Assembly: GCA_951406725.2 (NCBI GenBank)
Contig: OX597823.1
Coordinates: forward strand, 116,188,001 to 116,252,000
Direction of reading: 5' to 3'
Source: Octopus vulgaris
Taxonomy: Eukaryota
DNA: 64,000 bases
The notes under the pieces were generated by a model. That model made no database searches and was not told where the DNA came from. It worked only from the letters and a program-made list of their open reading frames with translations. Position numbers and translations under genes: made by a program. Below are positions 2,729-63,890 of the stretch, in pieces (position 1 is the stretch's first letter; each line of letters starts with the position of its first letter).

Positions 2729-4014
2729 TTGGGTTGTCCGGAAAGTTCATGCCGATTTATAGTAGCTTACCTTTCGACTTATTTTAAAACATGGTTGAGT
2801 CCATAAAATAGGATTTGACTACACCTCCATTTAGAGCACAGTTTAAGCAATCCTTTCGTGGAAGAAGGTTTGTGTTCCTATAACCTGTGTTAATTCTGTA
2901 AGCCTTTAAAATGGAAGTTAAGAAAGTTCATTTTCAGCACTTGATGCTTTTCTTTTTCTGTAAAGGGAAAAATGCCTCACAAGCAACCAAAGAAATATGC
3001 GCAGTTTATGGTGATGTTTCTTTATCCGAAAGAACTGTTCAGAAGTGGTTCAGAAGGTTCTGAGCTGGAGATTGTAGCCTTATTGATAAAGAGCGATCAG
3101 GTAGACCATCCACTACAAATGATGACCAAATCAAGTCATTAATTGAGAATAACCCACATTGCACGACCTAACAATTGGCAGAAAGCCTCAACATATCAAA
3201 ATCCATCATTGTGAGTACCTGGTAAAGCTTGAAAGCTTGGGTACACAAATCACTACGATGTTTGGGTACTAGATGAGTTGAGTGAGAAGAACCTTTTGGA
3301 TCGTATTTTCATCTGTGATTCACTTTATAACTGGAATGAAAACGCACCTTTTTTAAAGCAAATTGTGACAAGTGATGAGAAATGGATTATCTACCGAAAT
3401 GTTGAGAGAAAGCAATCCTGGAGTAAGCGACATGAGGCACCCTTAGCCACCCCAAAAGCGGGTCTTCACCCTAAAAAATTTTGCTTTGTGTAGAGATTGG
3501 AAAGGAATTCTGTACTATGAGCTTTTCCCAAGTAACCAGACAATTAGCTCTGAGAAATACTGCACACAACTGGATGAGTTAAAAGCAGCTACTCAAGAGA
3601 AACGTCCAGAATTGGCCAACAAGAAGGGTGTTATTTTCCAACATGATAATGCAAGACCACACATTTCTTTGGGAACCAGACAAAAATTGCTGCAGCTCAG
3701 CTGGGATGTGTTACCCCACCCTCCATATTCACCAGATATTGCTCCTTTGGATTTCCACTTATTCTGGTTTCTGCAGAATAGTCTTAATGGTAAAAATTTC
3801 AATTCCTTGGATGACGTAAATAGATACCTTGATGAATTCTTTGCCATGAAACAACCTCGATTCTGGGAAGAGGGTATTTTCAAGTTAAAGGAAAGATGGA
3901 GACGAATTGTGCAACAAAATAGTTCATCTTTGGTTGATTAAAAATGTAATGGTAAGTATTTATTGACTGTTTTCTTTCCTTTAAATATCGGCACGAACTT
4001 TCCGGACAACCCAA
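2729..4014 (+). mobile_element. Full-length mariner transposon (1286 bp), mellifera-like
   Basis: TIRs ttgggttgtccggaaagttc / gaactttccggacaacccaa with TA on both sides. Confidence 0.97.
2911..3941 (+). pseudogene. Mariner DD34D transposase, disrupted
   Basis: MEVKKVHFQHLMLFFFCKGKNASQA, TSDEKW, HDNARPH, YSPDIAPLDF with 34 aa between the 2nd and 3rd D; internal stops and frameshifts. Confidence 0.95.
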
Positions 4015-8974: not shown

Positions 8975-9392
8975 GGCGGCGAGCTGGCAGAAATGTTAGC
9001 ACGCCGGGCGAAATGCTTAGCGGTATTTTGTCCGCCGCTACATTCTGAGTTCAAATTCCACCGAGGTCGACTTTGCCTTTCATCCTTTTGGGGTCGATTA
9101 AATAGGTACCAGTTACACACTGGTGTCAGTGTAATTGACTTAATCCCTCTGTCTGTCCTCGTTTGTCCTCTCTGTGTTTAGCCCCCTTGTGGGTAGTAAA
9201 TAAATAGATATTTCGTCTGCCATTACGTTCTGAGTTCAAATTCCACCGAGGTCGACTTTGCCTTTCATCCTTTCGGGGTCGATTAAATAAGTATCAGTTA
9301 CGCACTGGGGTCGATATAATCGACTTAATCCCTTTGTCTGTCCTTGTTTGTCCTCTCTATGTTTAGCCCCTTGTGGGCAATAAAGAAATAAG
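8975..9392 (+). mobile_element. SINE family C, dimeric
   Basis: Head ggcggcgagctggcagaa; body and type-1 tail present twice. Confidence 0.9.
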
Positions 9393-13290: not shown

Positions 13291-13309
13291 TTCTTTTTTA
13301 TAATAACAA

Positions 13310-13751
13310 TCCTTTCTACTACAGGCACAAGGCCTGAAGTTTCAGGGGAGGGGACGAGTCGATTACATCGACCCCAGTGTTTCACTTGAACTTAACTTAT
13401 CGACCTTGAAAGGGTGAAAGGCAATGTCAACTTCAGTGGAATTTGAATTTAGAATGTAAAGTTGGACACAATGTTATTAAACACTTAGCCTAGCATACTT
13501 ATGATTCTGCCAGCTAGCCACCTTAATAATGATAACAATTCTTTTTACTCAAGGCACAAAGCCTGAAATTTTTGGAGAGGGGACTAGTTGCTTACATTGA
13601 CTCCAGTGTTTCACTGGTACTTAATTAATCGACCCACAAAGGATGAAAGGCGAAGTCGACCTCGGCGGTATTTGAACTCAAAATGTAGCGGCAAACAAAA
13701 TACCACTCAGCATTTTGCCCAGTATGCTAACAGTTCTGCCAGCTCACCACC

Positions 13752-13794
<43 letters not shown>

Positions 13795-55928: not shown

Positions 55929-56392
55929 CACACACACAACACATATACAAACACACACACCCACACACACACATGAAAATATTGAACTCCAACCAATTAT
56001 GTGAATATGGAAACCTTGGTTGAAAGTCTTTCAGTTGACATTTCCATATTTCATATTCTCAATACATTTGTCCTAAGTTCAACTTAATAATGTTGCACAC
56101 GAGCGAGAGAGAGGGGGGGGGAGGGGAAAGAGAAGGGAAAACAATTTTGTTATGGAAAGCAATTTAGTTTTCCATAGCTAAAAGCCAGATGGAAATTGAT
56201 ATACTTACTTGACTGTACACCAGTGTATTACTGATACCTAGGTATTCAGTTTTAGTGTGATAAATACTGAATATAACATTAGAGTTAAAACTCAGAGAAA
56301 TAATAAGCTTGCATAATAAATGCTTCTATTCCTACCACTCTTTCTCCTCCTCCTCATCCTCTTCATCATTATCATCATCATCATCATCATCA

Positions 56393-56550
56393 TGACTGGC
56401 TGTATGGTTAAGAAGTTTGCTTTCCAACCAAATAGTTTCAGGTTCTCTGCCACAACATGGCACTTTTTGTGAAGTGTCTTCATACATTGCCCCTAAGTTA
56501 ACTTAAATCCTTATGAATGGATTTAGGAGTCAGAAGCAAAAAAATCCCAC
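56393..56550 (+). mobile_element. SINE family A head, decayed
   Basis: tggctgtatggttaagaagtttgcttt...aagtgtcttc. Confidence 0.65.
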
Positions 56551-56577
56551 TTGTGTTTGTGTGTGTGTGTGTGTATA

Positions 56578-56982
56578 TTCTTTTATTCTGTCATTCTTTT
56601 ACTTGTTTCAGTCATTTGACTGTGGCCATGCTGGAGCACCACCTTTAGTCAAAGAAATCAATCCCCGGACCTATTCTTTGTAACCCTAGTAATTATTCTA
56701 TTGGTCTCTTTTGCCAAACCACTAAGTTTCAGGAACGTAAACACACCAACATCAGTTGTCAAGCAATGGTGGGGAGAGGGGTGGACAAATACAGACACAT
56801 ACACACATAAATATATATGTATACAACAGGCTTCTTTCAGTTTCCATCTACCAAATCTCCTCACAAGGCTTTGGTCAGCTTGAGGCTATAATAGAAGACA
56901 CTTGCCCAGGGTGCCACACAGTGGGACTGAACCCAGAACCATGTGGTTAAGAAGTAAGCTTCTTACCACACAGCCACGCCTG
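56578..56982 (-). mobile_element. SINE family A, full length
   Basis: Homologous to 30460-30856. Confidence 0.92.
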
Positions 56983-56998
56983 ATATATAAATATATAC

Positions 56999-57031
<33 letters not shown>

Positions 57032-57140
57032 TATACACACACAAATGTCACTAAATGCTAGACAACACCTACATTGCTAGAAATAAGAGCTAAGATCCTC
57101 TAATGCTGTAGCTAATGCACATGAATGAAAACGTATACAC

Positions 57141-57348
57141 TAACAGGGACCAAAATCCTTCGAAAAGTGCCAGTCAAGAATGCTTAATACTGACACATCA
57201 GTTTCGGCAATTTACTAATGGTGAAGTAAGGCTGGAAAGAGCTGAAAAGAAGCTGGCTTAACTGATGAGGTGAGAGAAACTGCTGAAACTGATGCGTCAG
57301 TATTAAGCATTCTCGATTGACATTTTGTGGACAATTATGGTCCTTGTT
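57141..57348 (+). mobile_element. Foldback element F7
   Basis: Diverged arms about 57141-57213 and 57277-57348. Confidence 0.7.
57256..57308 (+). ncRNA. Type I hammerhead ribozyme motif
   Basis: Stem I GCUUAA/UUAAGC; CUGAUGA 57262-57268; GAAA 57285-57288; stem III ACUGAU-GC-GUCAGU; GUA site 57300-57302. Confidence 0.82.
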
Positions 57349-57351
57349 ATT

Positions 57352-57760
57352 CATTTTTATTCTTTTATTTGGTTCAGCCATTTGACTGCGGCCATGCTGG
57401 AGCACCACCTTTAGTCGAGCAAATCAACCTCAGGACTTATTCTTTGTATACCTAGTGCTTATTCTATCGATCTCTCTTGCCGAACCGCTAGGTGACGGGG
57501 ACGTAAACACACCAGCATCGTTTGTCAAGCGATGTTGAGGGGACAAACACATACACACAAACATATACATACATACACACACACAGATTTATATATACAA
57601 TGAGCTTCTTTCAGTTTCTGTCTACCAACTCCACTCACAAGGCTTTGGTAGGCCCGAGGCTATTGTAAAAGACACTTGCCCAAGGTGCCACGTAGTGGGA
57701 CTAAACCCGGAATGATGCAGCTGGTAAGCAAGCTACTTACCACACAGCCATTCCTGCACT
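57352..57760 (-). mobile_element. SINE family A, full length
   Basis: Homologous to 30460-30856. Confidence 0.92.
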
Positions 57761-57791
57761 TAGAGTATATGTTTTCATTCATGTGCGCTAA

Positions 57792-58059
57792 TGTTGTGGT
57801 GAGAGTTACAACGGCCCTTGTGAGAGATAGACTGGTCCTTGTAAAGTATAAATAGTAACGATCTGAGTGTTTTCAAGAGTTCAGAGTTTGGGGCTGAGTG
57901 AAGTTCATGTTAGTTTGCAGTGAAGTCAGAAGGTGTCAGTTGGTTAGTTCACAAGCAATATTGATTGTTGGTTCGTAAAGAGATTTATTAGTTTGTTACA
58001 TTGCTTTTACTCTTATCTGGTTATCTTATTTATTGCACGTAACAAATTATGTTACAACA
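57792..58059 (+). mobile_element. 5' LTR of a Ty3/Gypsy retrotransposon (268 bp)
   Basis: TGTTGTG...TACAACA termini, TATAAATA at 57847, PBS TGGCGATGAGG at 58062-58072. Confidence 0.8.
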
Positions 58060-58130
58060 TCTGGCGATGAGGCTTTTGAAGCTCACATAGGTTATTTAAC
58101 AATTTGTTCGTGATGCAACTTGTTAAATAA

Positions 58131-59220
58131 ATGGAAGACCTATTATCTTTCATAGTACAGTTGCAAAAACAACAACAAGAACAGCAACAGGAGTGGAGGT
58201 GCAATGGCCCAATGGTTAGGGCAGCAGACTCACGGTTGGAGGATCACAGGTTTCGATTCCCAGACTGGGCGTTGTGTGTGTTTATTGAGCGAAAACACCT
58301 AAAAGCTCCACGAGGCTCCGGCAGGGGGGGGCGACCCCTGTTGTACTCTTTTGCTCCAACTTTCTCTCACTCTTTCTTCCTGTTTCCTTGTCCCCGACTT
58401 CCTACGCAACCGCTGTGCCTGGATGTGCATTCATCCATCCGTCGATGCTCTCGGTGTCAGGGGTTGACCTGCTTTCTCTTCTTCTGCGGGTCTTACGAAT
58501 GGCAAAGGACCATGTTTCACACTTCTCCCACTACAGACGAAGACTGCTTCACTCAACAAACAAACAAACAAACAAACAGCAACAGGAGCTGCAGAAGCAA
58601 CTATCACAGCAACAACTACAACAATTACTGGAGATATATTCAAAGAAGTCTAAAATGAGGTAAGTGTGTTTCTGCCAGATTGCATTTCGAACTTGATTAA
58701 TGAATTCAGTTATAACCCAGAGGAGGGTATAACTTTTGCATTGTACTACAGATGGTACAAGGAGAGTTTTAAGCGAGATTGCAACTCATGGTCAGATGAA
58801 CAAAAAGTGAGATTGTTATTGCAAAAAATTAGCTCCGTTAGAGCTTGAACATTACTGTAATTTCATATCGCCACAAAACCCAGTGCAGTTTGTTTTAAAG
58901 AAACAATAGAATTACTGTGTAACATATTCAGTGATAAAACTTCTCTATTTAACACTGGAATGGAATGTTGGACTATAACGAAAAATGAGTATGATGAATT
59001 TATCATATACGCAGAAACAGTCAACAGGCTGTGCGAAAGTTTTAAACTCAAAGAACTTGCACCTGAGATGTTCAGGTGTCTTCTTTTCATACAAGGCCTT
59101 ACAGCAAGTGAAGGTATAGAAATTTGGGCAATTCTTTCTAAATTGGAACAAGAGAAACAAAATCTAATCTTACAGCCCATGGCAGAAGAATTCAAAAAAG
59201 ATGATCAACCTGAAATCTGA
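58131..59220 (+). pseudogene. Ty3/Gypsy gag, disrupted and 3' truncated
   Basis: Q-rich N-terminus, EFSYNPEEGITF..YYRWY...WSDEQKVRLLL, FRCLLFIQGL; SINE insertion and frameshifts; no pol or 3' LTR seen. Confidence 0.8.
58194..58574 (+). mobile_element. SINE family E inserted in gag
   Basis: 14-bp TSD aacagcaacaggag at 58180-58193 and 58575-58588; (CAAA)n tail. Confidence 0.92.
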
Positions 59221-59720
59221 CCACAGTCAAATGACTGAAGCAAGTGAAAGAATTTAAAGAGTATTCAAAGATATAACAACTGTAAATATATATTCTAAAG
59301 TGGGTAAGTTTTAGCCCACTCTGGGATCATGTTCAAGTTTGGGGACATAACCACTGTAACTATTCTTCTATAGATGAACAACTTTTATCCAGTTTGAGGT
59401 CATTAGATATCCAAAAATTTAACACTTGTTGCATTCCTGGATACATTCTAAAGATGGATTGCATAAATTAGAGATAGTATTCTTAGTACCAACTAATCTT
59501 CTACATAGGAGTTAAAGAGACCAACCAGTTCTTCAGGGTAAATTAAAATTAATTAGAATTTGACTTGTTATAGTTAAAGTGAGCTGCTCTTCACATGATA
59601 CATCTTCCAACATAGAATTCCTGAAATTTATGGTTGACTGCAAGATTTGGGTTCCTAAACTGTTTTGATACATTTTTTTTTTATTTGTGTCTTATCTGCT
59701 GTAATATATTGTATTTGTAA

Positions 59721-60138
59721 GGCAGCGAGCTGGCAGAAGCATTGGCATGCTGGGGGGAAACGCTTGGTGGTATTGCATCTGTTTTTATATCCTGAGTTCA
59801 TATTCCACCAAGGGCGACTTTGCTTTTCATCCTTTCAGGGTTGATAAATTAAGTACCAGTTGTGTACTGGTTTGATCTAATTGACTGTCCCCTCACTTCC
59901 CAGAAATTTCAGCCCTTGTGCCTAGAATAGAAAAACAAAAATAATATTCTGTATTTGAACTGCTGAAACAATAAGCACACTGGAGAAGATGCAAAATGGT
60001 ATTTCGTTTGACTTTATGTTTTGAGTTCAAGTTCTTGCGGCATTGATAAAACAAGTACCAGACTAGTTCTGGGACTGAAGTAACTGACCAGAGACCTTCC
60101 CTAAAATTTCAGGTCTTCTACCTATAGTATAAAGAAAT
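59721..60138 (+). mobile_element. Two decayed SINE C copies
   Basis: About 59721-59935 and 59985-60138, type-2 tails. Confidence 0.75.
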
Positions 60139-60533
60139 TAAAAAAATATGTTGAATTTGAACTCATTTGCCAATTATTTCATTTTTCTTTTTTTTTTTTG
60201 CTAATGTTTTTCCAACATGTTTGACATTGAATTATTGGCAAACTAAGAATTTCTCCAAAAATACTTGACTTGTCTGGCCTTCCTTACTTCATTTTACCAA
60301 ATAAAGCAACATTATTTGTATTTCATATAAAACTCTTGGCATTCCTTTTTCTTCCTTACTGAATCTCTTGATACAGTTGAAGATTTCTCAAGAATAACTT
60401 TCTAAATTGGTTCCTTGCTCTTTTCCCACCACTTTGCTTTGCATTTCTGATACATTATTTACCGTTAAATATCTTTGACTAACCTCTCCAAGACATTTCT
60501 ACAAACAATTGCTATGACTCTTACTATAATGTT

Positions 60534-60837
60534 GGGAGGCACATGGCCTAGTGGTTAGAGCAGCAGACTCATGGTCGAGGGATCGTGGGTTCGAATCTCG
60601 GACTGGGCGATGTGTGTGTTTATGAGCGAAACATCTAAGTTCCACGTGGCTCAGGCAGATGGTAATGGCGAACTTCTGCTGACCCTTTTGCCACAACTTT
60701 CTCTCACTCTTTCCTCCTGCATCTTGCAGCTCACTTGCAATGGACCGGCGTCCCGTCCAGGTGGGGAACCTATACACCAAGGAAACTGGGAAACTGGCCC
60801 TTATGAACCAGGCAGGGCTCGAGAAGGAACAAACAAA
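60534..60837 (+). mobile_element. Chimeric SINE, E-type head with B'-like tail
   Basis: TSD ttactataatgtt; tRNA A and B boxes. Confidence 0.85.
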
Positions 60838-60866
60838 TTACTATAATGTTAATTATTTTTCTCATA

Positions 60867-61080
60867 TTGATTTCAAATTTTGGCACAAGACCAGCAATTT
60901 CAGGGAAGTGAGCTAGTCAATTACTTTGATCCCAATGCTCAACTGGTACTTATTTTATCAACCCTAAATGGATTAAAGGCAAAGTCAACTTAGGTGGCAT
61001 TTGAACTCAGAATGTAAAGACAAAGGAAATGCCTCTGAGCATTTTACCTGCATGCTAATGATTCTGCCAACTCATCACCT
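60867..61080 (-). mobile_element. SINE family C (type-2 tail)
   Basis: Family C body. Confidence 0.82.
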
Positions 61081-61130
61081 TAATTAGTTTTCTCATATTT
61101 AAAACTGATATTTTTGAAAAACTTAACTCT

Positions 61131-61528
61131 AGGTGTAGGAGGGGCTGTGTGGTAAGTAGCTTGCTTATGAACCACATGGTTCCGGGTTCAGTCCCACTGC
61201 GTGACACCTTGGGCAAGTGTCTTCTACTATAGCCTCAAGCCAACCAATGCCTTGTGAGTGGATTTGGTAGATGGAAACTGAAAGAAGCCTATCATATATT
61301 AATATATATGTGTGTGTCTGTGTTTGTCCCCCCAACATCTCTTGACAACTGATGCTGGTGTGTTTACGTTCCCGTAACTTAGCAGTTCGGCAAAAGAGAC
61401 TGATAGAATAAGTACTAGGCTTACAAAGAATAAGTCCTGGGGTCGATTTGCTTTACTAAAGGCAGTACTCCAGAATGGCCACAGTCAAGCGACTGAAACA
61501 AGTAAAAGAGTAAAAGAGTAAAAGAGTA
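61131..61528 (+). mobile_element. SINE family A, full length
   Basis: tRNA head, (AAAGAGTA)n tail. Confidence 0.92.
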
Positions 61529-62060
61529 ATGAATATTAAGAAATCCATCAATATTAGGATTTATTCCTCCTTGGATGCATATGTCTGTGTCCTTTCCATT
61601 CGGATGGGGTTATTTGTTACATTCCACATAACTTAATATATCTGCCACCTTCCATCATTTAACATCCATGTTCCAAGCTGGAATGGGTTGATAAAATCCC
61701 ACATGTCTAAGGACTGCATCATGTTCCACTCACTGCTGTGGCACGTTGTCTACAGTTGGACAACGTGCCCTTCTTAATGCCAACTCCTTTACAGTTTGTA
61801 TTGGGTGCCTTTTTTTCCTGTCACTGACACTAGTGAAGCTGTCATGCAGTTTGAAAGATTATGAACCCAGAGGGGGCACCTTTTTATTAGATGAGAGATA
61901 AAAGGAGGAAGAAGTTTGAGAAAAGGAGCCAGTGCAGAAGGAGCTACATGACTACTCCCATTTTAGAAGTGAGGGTAGGAGTGATTTAGTGGAGCTAGAG
62001 TGATCAGGAGGAGGAGGTTGGAGTTTACTGACAGTGATGAACATCAGACTACTAATTTTA

Positions 62061-62630
62061 TTGGGTTGTCCGGAAAGTTTGTGCCGATGATAGTAGCTTA
62101 CCTTTTGACTTATTTTAGAACATGGTTGAGTTCATAAAACAAGATTTGACTACACCTCCATTTAGAGCACAGTTTAAGCTATCTTTTCTTGGAAGAAGGT
62201 TTATGTTCCTATAACCTGTGTTAATTCTGTAAGCCTTTAAAATGGAAGATAAGAAAGTTCATTTTTGACACTTGATGCTTTGCTTTGGGAACCAGACAAA
62301 AATTGCTGCAGCTCGGCTGGGATGTGTTACCCCACCCTCCATATTCACCAGATATTGCTACTTCGGATTTCCACTTATTCAGGTCTCTGCAGAATAGTCT
62401 TAATGGTAAAAATTTCAATTCCTTCAATTACGTAAAAAAATACCTTGATGAATTCTTTGCCATGAAACCACCTCAATTCTGGGAAGAGGGTATTTTCAAG
62501 TTAAAGGAAAGATGGAGATGTATTCTGCAACAAAATGGTTTATATTTGGTTGATTAAAAATGTAATGACAAGTATTTATTGACCTTTTCCTTTCCTTTAA
62601 AAATCGACGCAAGCTTTCCGGACAACCCAA
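62061..62630 (+). mobile_element. Internally deleted mariner (570 bp), same family as 2729-4014
   Basis: Both TIRs and TA flanks present; about 715 bp of the transposase missing. Confidence 0.95.
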
Positions 62631-63699
62631 TAAAAAGGCTGACATGAGCAGGAAGAGAGTGGGATGAAGTTGGGCAGGTTGCAGGAATGAGTAGGGAAGA
62701 GAGAGGCAGTTGCAGTGCATGAGGAGAGTGGGAGGTTGCATGAGGTTGTGAGGAGGAAAGTTAGTTGTTGACTCAGTGGGAGTGAGGTTGTGGTGGGGTC
62801 AATGGAAGTGTGGGTGCTACTAAAATTGAGCAAATTCTCATTATCACATTGACTGTCTTTTTAAACTTTGATATTTACAACTGACAGAAAATGGTAATCT
62901 GATTCCCCACATTAATAATATATCTCACTGGAAGTGTGTTGACAACTAATCTATTTTCTGCAGCTCAGAATATCCGCTTATAAAAGTCCATCTAGAGGTA
63001 ATTCCAAATATCTAAATGGATGTTGGCTATTATGTTGCAATATGTCCAACGACTAAACTATTCCACAGCCCCCCCTCACCCCCACCCCATTAATTTTTAT
63101 TATTCTCTTAATATTTATAATTACTGATGATGTTATTACTTGTAACATCTTAACTTGTTATCCTTAACATTGCTTCTGAAATTTCAAGATCACACAATTC
63201 TAATATCGTTAAGAGATTCTTAACGGTCTTTGCTATATTTTATTTAGGTATTTAAAAGCTATAATCCCAAATTATTGTTAATAAATTTTAAAATACATAA
63301 TGCCATTAGTACAAGCCTGGAATTGTTGGATAATGCAGTCTAAGAACTTGTCTTCTAATCACAATATTAAGTTTCTTTAACTGGTTAGATAAATAGTGAA
63401 TGGCCACATAGTATATAGTTTATGAATACTAGAAGAAAATAATGCCTATCAGACTGGCATCATATTGGTGTTTAGTTGCATTGAGCTTGTGCCAGATAAT
63501 TCTAACGTTGTAGCAACAGAGGAAATATTAGTGTTTGTATGTATATGTGTGTGTGTGTGTGTGATTGTGTAGTATAAAGTCCTAGTATAAGACTTACAAG
63601 TATTTCCAGAAGCAGTTTATGGCTTTCTGTTAACTAGGTGACATGGTTAGCTTCAAAGAAGGGTGTTTTAAATGTTAAATAGTGATAACTAGTGCTTGA

Positions 63700-63890
63700 A
63701 AAATCCCAACTACTCATCCTTGCCACTAAACCTTTTTCTATTTTCTCTCCCTGTTTATTTCTCTGTTCCTTTCTGTTGAAGAGCATAGGCTCGAAATGTA
63801 AAAGACTTTCTCACTTCCCGAGCATTAAACTAATACATCTGTTTGTTGTTTACACACCCATCTTCATCTTTTGCTTTTTGTAAAATCTCT
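63700..63890 (+). mobile_element. Penelope-like pLTR end
   Basis: Second copy at 41410-41540 (minus); pyrimidine-rich lead-in; ends at (TA)n. Confidence 0.6.
63769..63804 (+). ncRNA. Minimal type I hammerhead variant (A6U)
   Basis: CUUU-CUGUUGA-A-GAGC-AUAG-GCUC-GAAA-UG-UA-AAAG. Confidence 0.6.

Follow-up and report, generated by a model that had tools for sequence, protein, structure and literature searches.

The hammerhead motif at positions 57256–57308 of the window, the 64,000-nucleotide stretch of Octopus vulgaris DNA analyzed here, is in our judgment a decayed type I ribozyme; it lies in an old repeat, with a unit of about 356 bp, whose copy here is truncated and inverted. The repeat is likely a non-LTR retrozyme, and its RNA is likely left uncut at this locus; we hold this reading as a whole with considerable confidence. 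Cutting is thought unlikely because one of its stems has decayed and because an adjacent inverted piece is predicted to fold back over the motif. The locus adds another octopus-type retrozyme family, and one presumably dead copy of it, to a known class, and it is of use in that Rfam misses the family even in its intact copies.

The hammerhead motif and its surroundings

A preliminary description of the locus had reported a full hammerhead core, a perfect 6-bp stem I, and a GUA cleavage site, and the letters of the plus strand confirm all three, and with them the type I identity. CUGAUGA (C3–A9, 57262–57268) and GAAA (G12–A15.1, 57285–57288) keep all 11 core bases intact, in the type I order CUGANGA/GAAA/NUH; stem I is formed by GCUUAA at 57256–57261 and UUAAGC at 57303–57308; and the G-U-A triplet occupies 57300–57302. 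In the hammerhead consensus, cleavage lies 3′ of H17, here 57302, and the cut site proposed earlier, after 57302, holds as a prediction. The near-palindrome noted for stem III is also present, as a 14-nt stretch (57288–57301) that could pair in full between two RNAs. The 6-bp stem III claimed from it would require a 2-nt loop; the monomer form has 5 bp and a 4-nt loop. Stems I and III (6 and 5 bp) can be drawn, yet they are unformed in the predicted fold once the upstream arm described below is present. Stem II and loop 2 (57269–57284) are decayed, and the extended ribozyme (57247–57317, plus strand) includes internal loop 1 and a distal stem I in which two of five pairs are left.

This is the sole site in the window that matches a type I descriptor with stems, compared with five matches to a core-only regular expression. 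A 26-nt motif of the ancestral type has 12 exact copies in the genome, and a control pattern has none, which argues that the motif is not due to chance. No hammerhead was found among 142 Rfam matches in the window or eight local ones, and the window copy stays below the gathering score of the Rfam hammerhead model. An intact copy elsewhere in the genome (L031) reached 16.7 of the 48.5 bits set for RF00008 and 12.6 of the 56.3 bits set for RF03152; since an intact copy falls short of these scores, Rfam misses the whole family. MicroRNA matches in Rfam were rejected as microsatellite or hairpin artefacts.

The insertion that carries the motif starts at its left end with a (TA)n microsatellite (56983–57035). 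This is followed by a truncated piece of the repeat unit, inverted onto the minus strand (57041–57213; our family model R1 gives 30.2 bits at 57173–57237, minus), which begins within stem II and has GAAA, stem III, and the 3′ strand of stem I without CUGAUGA. The forward piece with the ribozyme (57213–57349, plus strand) is split by a high-copy insertion at 57350–57759, flanked by TTA on both sides, which we take to be SINE-like, and resumes at 57760–57791; having split the forward piece, this insertion is later than the repeat. As to a host gene, 44 of 100 stop-to-stop frames were compared with Pfam, and the single match above the curated cut-off was a transposase piece at 3447–3941 (Transposase_1, PF01359, E 1.4e-10). 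No splice joints stood out in 56000–64000. Broken frames at 58131–59250, which a high-copy repeat splits at about 58195–58545 and which lack a Pfam match, presumably resemble a decayed retrotransposon gag. Tandem repeats with two copies each, of 185 bp at 9024–9390 and 229 bp at 13303–13754, are probably adjacent SINE-like copies.

The repeat family and its ribozyme

The motif belongs to a dispersed non-coding repeat, for which first-look searches gave 271 and 1066 candidate places in the genome, with 40 scored in each case. After merging duplicates of one genomic place, 72 loci became 52 places, with a median span of 396 nt and a longest span of 1040. The unit has a median period of 356 nt (22 of 52 places) and a GC content of 38.6% (one unit), below 45%, and carries one type I hammerhead. 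Direct repeats spaced 309–360 nt occur in 22 of the 52 places, and the end of one unit joins the start of the next head to tail. Both orientations are present in 20 places, giving the partial tandems and inverted 5′-truncated insertions that mark the pLTRs of Penelope-like elements (PLEs); the other 32 places have one orientation, and junctions vary. Two full ribozymes stand in tandem at L016, L030, L107, and L108 but not at the window locus, and in this small sample of tandems at least one copy each has a changed core or a changed stem II.

An alignment of 49 copies was used to build model R1. Across 48 distinct copies, 91.3% of 1056 cells are paired in a common fold that consists of a distal stem I, a 3x3 internal loop, a 6-bp stem I, a 5-bp stem II, and a 5-bp stem III; copies were found via the ribozyme region or by best scores, so that this conservation is biased upward. 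The outer pair of stem I is U-A in 31 copies and G-C in eight, and 21 double changes were observed as opposed to 8.1 ± 2.4 after shuffling, a number inflated by relatedness and by CpG decay on both strands. The stem III palindrome is 14 nt long in 52 of 62 matches and 12 nt in seven. Among these 62 matches, two of which are spurious, the core is intact in 43 and the G10.1-C11.1 pair is present in 37. Six copies keep the core, this pair, and all stems: L031:1491-1561(-), L004:1524-1594(-), L041:1491-1561(-), L026:1497-1567(+), L016:1172-1242(-), and L068:1599-1669(-). They are better candidates for cleavage assays than the window copy. The long palindromic stem III should allow cutting both as monomer and as dimer, which is testable on these six natural copies. 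A second hammerhead-like motif, at L077:163-265, has U4 read as C, a 3-bp stem II, and a near-palindromic stem III; it occupies the loop of a hairpin with about 36 perfectly paired bp that has (TA)n runs on either side (R1 26.3 bits, E 0.0004).

PMC7229834 defines non-LTR retrozymes by tandem units that are short, low in GC, and carry a type I hammerhead. With the metazoan members of this class, as described by Cervera and de la Pena (2020, PMC7229834) and in a 2026 preprint (10.64898/2026.07.22.740005), the family shares a non-coding unit of about 300–350 bp with GC below 45%, a single canonical type I hammerhead per unit, and tandem as well as monomer copies. It differs in having no long arrays (52 places, longest 1040 nt) and no young copies, and in the frequency of inverted pieces. 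The same preprint calls a retrozyme active when two consecutive units have complete ribozymes. Metazoan type I motifs mostly have a stem III of 1–2 bp according to PMC4209133, whereas stem III of the family is a palindrome of 12 or 14 nt, 4–5 bp as a monomer. The hammerheads of PLE pLTRs, as reported by Cervera and de la Pena (2014, PMC4209133) and in PMC8557442, share with the family a palindromic helix III, G10.1-C11.1, an inverted truncated copy on the 5′ side, and microsatellite neighbors. In contrast to what these sources report for pLTRs, the family ribozyme is not minimal, most copies have no extra base between A9 and G10.1, and the 6-bp stem I is followed by an internal loop and a distal stem; in the sampled loci, no RT or GIY-YIG frame was found linked to the repeat. 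A literature search returned nothing on hammerheads of this family in cephalopods and nothing on retrozymes edited by ADAR; the supplement of PMC7229834 may list cephalopods.

Decay of the window copy

The preliminary description held that only stem II is weakened, which understates the damage, as loop 2 is altered and the distal stem I, which closes internal loop 1, is down to two of its five pairs. The stem II pairs are G.U, G-C, U.G, G.U, and AxC, leaving one Watson–Crick pair, a state seen in four of 62 matches. Six of the 16 bases of stem II and loop 2, including two of the six in loop 2, differ from the commonest family sequence, which ties for worst among 52 copies. The motif is the best candidate within the window, where it is the sole full copy, but not genome-wide. 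At position 10.1-11.1, a G.U wobble replaces the G-C pair that had been proposed as ancestral; other copies show that proposal to be right. Orthologous contigs from four sequencing runs, each of a different organism, all show the family state at both 57280 (T) and 57227 (C). Given T in all four runs, the window mismatch at 57280 looks derived; no difference is listed at 57284, and the wobble hence appears shared.

By the identity of its copies, the family is old: the closest other copy to a near-consensus query is 91% identical (40 scored of 1066 candidates), and the 29 copies found with this query are at most 88% identical to one another (median 83%). The two window arms differ from the majority at 11 of 114 and 14 of 155 non-CpG sites (9–10%) and at 13 of 24 and seven of 16 CpG sites (about half); the window copy probably lost CpGs and pairs after insertion. 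In the 29 copies, 10 of 289 core positions have changed (3.5%) compared with 350 of 4198 in the flanks (8.3%; p=0.0016), and the core is intact in 19. Eight pairs within the same insertion gave 7 of 79 (8.9%) and 144 of 880 (16.4%), which is not decisive (p=0.10). As the core is kept better than the flanks, decay is not clearly neutral family-wide. A better-kept core is expected from selection on source elements; search bias could also give such a difference.

Predicted fold-back of the inverted piece over the ribozyme

The inverted and forward pieces form an inverted repeat with 73-nt arms, 57141–57213 (the 5′ arm, plus strand) and 57277–57349, that are 81% complementary and fold at −77.9 kcal/mol (z −9.3). 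The upstream arm had been noted for preserving gccgaaa, which it does carry on the minus strand. What had been missed is that the arm is predicted to pair with the ribozyme itself, covering GAAA, stem III, and the 3′ strand of stem I. The arm had also been taken to show that stem III was once a palindrome; this is right for the ancestor, as other copies have it, but the arm is no independent witness, both window copies having T in the sense orientation where the ancestral palindrome has C.

Folding was predicted with ViennaRNA, which treats secondary structure and has no tertiary terms; as intact copies reach only about 1e-3 in such predictions, the ranking is relative. The 53-nt motif alone is not predicted to adopt a hammerhead fold (−12 kcal/mol, z −1.7). 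Of the predicted ensemble, the hammerhead fold makes up 3.8e-7 for the motif alone, 5.5e-8 in 57240–57330, and 4.6e-27 with the arm, where the hammerhead fold (−57.7 kcal/mol) lies about 37 kcal/mol above the duplex (−94.5 kcal/mol). The duplex becomes the minimum predicted fold once the chain ends at 57290, prior to the existence of the 3′ strand of stem I. Two spurious and four truncated or chimeric matches of 62 were removed for the comparison between copies; among the remaining 56, the window copy ranks 31st, and the six intact copies have shares of 1e-4 to 3e-3. With this rank and an arm predicted to bury the ribozyme, the models lend no support to the earlier suggestion that it is possibly still active. 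The construct proposed for testing this, 57240–57330, omits the arm, so cutting by it would not show activity at the locus.

Activity and origin

Slow residual activity, from short transcripts that start between the arms, from a dimer formed through the palindrome, or with the help of a protein chaperone, is unlikely in our estimate. The 11 core bases, the 6-bp stem I, and stem III are all there, an A-U pair is restored at 57280 in the orthologous contigs, and weak natural hammerheads can cut (PMC4209133, PMC7229834, PMC11167929): in axolotl, a hammerhead whose stem II has a U.U mismatch at its base is reported to cut 22% within one hour (PMC7229834), and a PLE hammerhead from a lizard to cut only with its protein (PMC11167929). 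Both of these reports count against a verdict of no cutting. Against activity of the window copy stand the predicted probability of stem II, about 0 in both 57240–57330 and 57214–57349, and the altered distal stem I and loop 2. An intact core of 11 bases survives by chance at 8–13% divergence with a probability of 0.22–0.40, the copy was picked for its core, and no promoter or RNA start is known between the arms.

The repeat might instead be a truncated pLTR, the terminal repeat from a Penelope-like element that was autonomous and is now extinct; this would leave the verdict on activity unchanged. We regard this as rather improbable, slightly less so than residual activity. The inverted truncated copy on the 5′ side, the partial tandems, and the (TA)n neighbors are PLE traits in the account of Craig et al. 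(2021, PMC8557442), in which PLE insertions include such pieces and (TA)n is a reported target, and the preprint of Li, Clavereau and Pollet (10.64898/2026.07.22.740005) derives retrozymes from pLTRs. Yet units join end to start with a period of 356, the family ribozyme is canonical and not minimal, and the unit shows no similarity to 30 GIY-YIG loci and four longer RT+GIY-YIG loci, a small sample of 6136 candidates. Much harder to credit is the idea that the hammerhead letters are incidental to a hairpin DNA element or a microRNA precursor. The strong fold-back and the top local Rfam match, MIR4387 with 51.9 bits, speak for it, but this match does not reach its gathering score (84), the family has no fixed inversion (32 of 52 places have a single orientation, and junctions differ), and the hammerhead fold is conserved and covarying; the idea is already largely refuted.

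Under the retrozyme reading, tandem transcripts of the ancestor would have been cut after GUA into unit-length RNAs, either as monomers via the 5-bp stem III or as dimers via the palindrome, and these RNAs were probably circularized. Reverse transcription in trans could then have given permuted inserts of one to two units, often with an inverted piece, and the repeat was likely spread by a Penelope-like reverse transcriptase. We infer mobilization by a PLE from architecture and literature. No A>G strand bias was seen in genomic copies (29 and 36 copies; 56 A>G and 52 T>C), so that the argument for an RNA intermediate is one of architecture. In the window copy, plus-strand read-through would make the upstream arm first, and the arm would zip with 57277 onward into a long duplex before stem I closes. 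The duplex would probably be edited by ADAR in place of ribozyme formation.

A>G changes in the upstream arm

A-to-I editing is strong in cephalopods. One contig of the orthologous set, from a run designated X1, covers 57046–57312 at depth 2 and has nine differences, seven of them listed. All five listed changes that are private to X1 are A>G (57176, 57177, 57180, 57186, and 57195, plus strand); all lie within the arm, and none has G upstream. In the predicted duplex, three of these sites are in A-U pairs and two are opposite C. Five A>G changes out of five would arise by chance with a probability of 2e-4 to 2e-3, and all would fall in the arm with one of 1e-4. Two of the five equal the ancestral CpG state; with the three other sites only, the chances are 0.006–0.03 and 0.004, respectively. 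Pieces from runs X3 and X4 have zero differences over 57120–57212.

X1 is an RNA-like run from another, related organism and has no matched DNA. It is read as RNA because it is small (62 million letters), because the family is nearly absent from it relative to the SINE-like repeat (depth 6 versus 64,822; in X2, 14,733 versus 1,086,616), and because its profile follows that of RNA-labeled runs of the same organism. The contig extends 10 nt beyond the cut site, less than the 31 nt demanded by our rule, and was not counted as uncleaved RNA. No run labeled as RNA was listed for 57041–57370, which speaks neither for nor against transcription, and X14, X17, and X5 have no contig over the ribozyme, from which, with contigs alone, absence does not follow.

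The clustered A>G changes likely reflect ADAR (A-to-I) editing of the fold-back, a lead from a single contig, and they fit plus-strand read-through and a real duplex. According to Porath et al. (2017, PMC5625713), the ADAR pattern is a lack of G upstream, and octopus is heavily hyper-edited. The likeness to the edited inverted repeats described there is that A>G changes cluster, with no G upstream, where two repeat pieces fold back on each other; the difference is that the duplex here covers a ribozyme and that the changes come from a single contig. If repeated in more data, an edited fold-back would show how Penelope-type inversions make a ribozyme an ADAR substrate. It is very improbable, in our view, that editing goes on to gate the ribozyme, with the arm locking the hammerhead in a duplex that A-to-I editing loosens so that some RNAs cut; if true, such a gate would give the host a general switch for retrozyme cutting, given inverted pieces in 20 of 52 sampled places.

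Search for a parent element

No parent Penelope element was found in the sampled GIY-YIG loci, and R1 had no match in the four long ones. These include a young RT+GIY-YIG family with 781-aa frames, which shares no sequence with the unit. This high-copy element, at L103:430-5672 and also in L104, L105, and L106, has copies that are 96–98% alike, and no hammerhead was found in it. Direct repeats of 456 bp, 99.3% identical, flank an upstream frame of 359–479 aa and an intact 781-aa RT + GIY-YIG frame, after which come tandem repeats of about 92 bp that are rich in CCAAT-box and CRE-like motifs, an LTR-like build for a Penelope-type protein.
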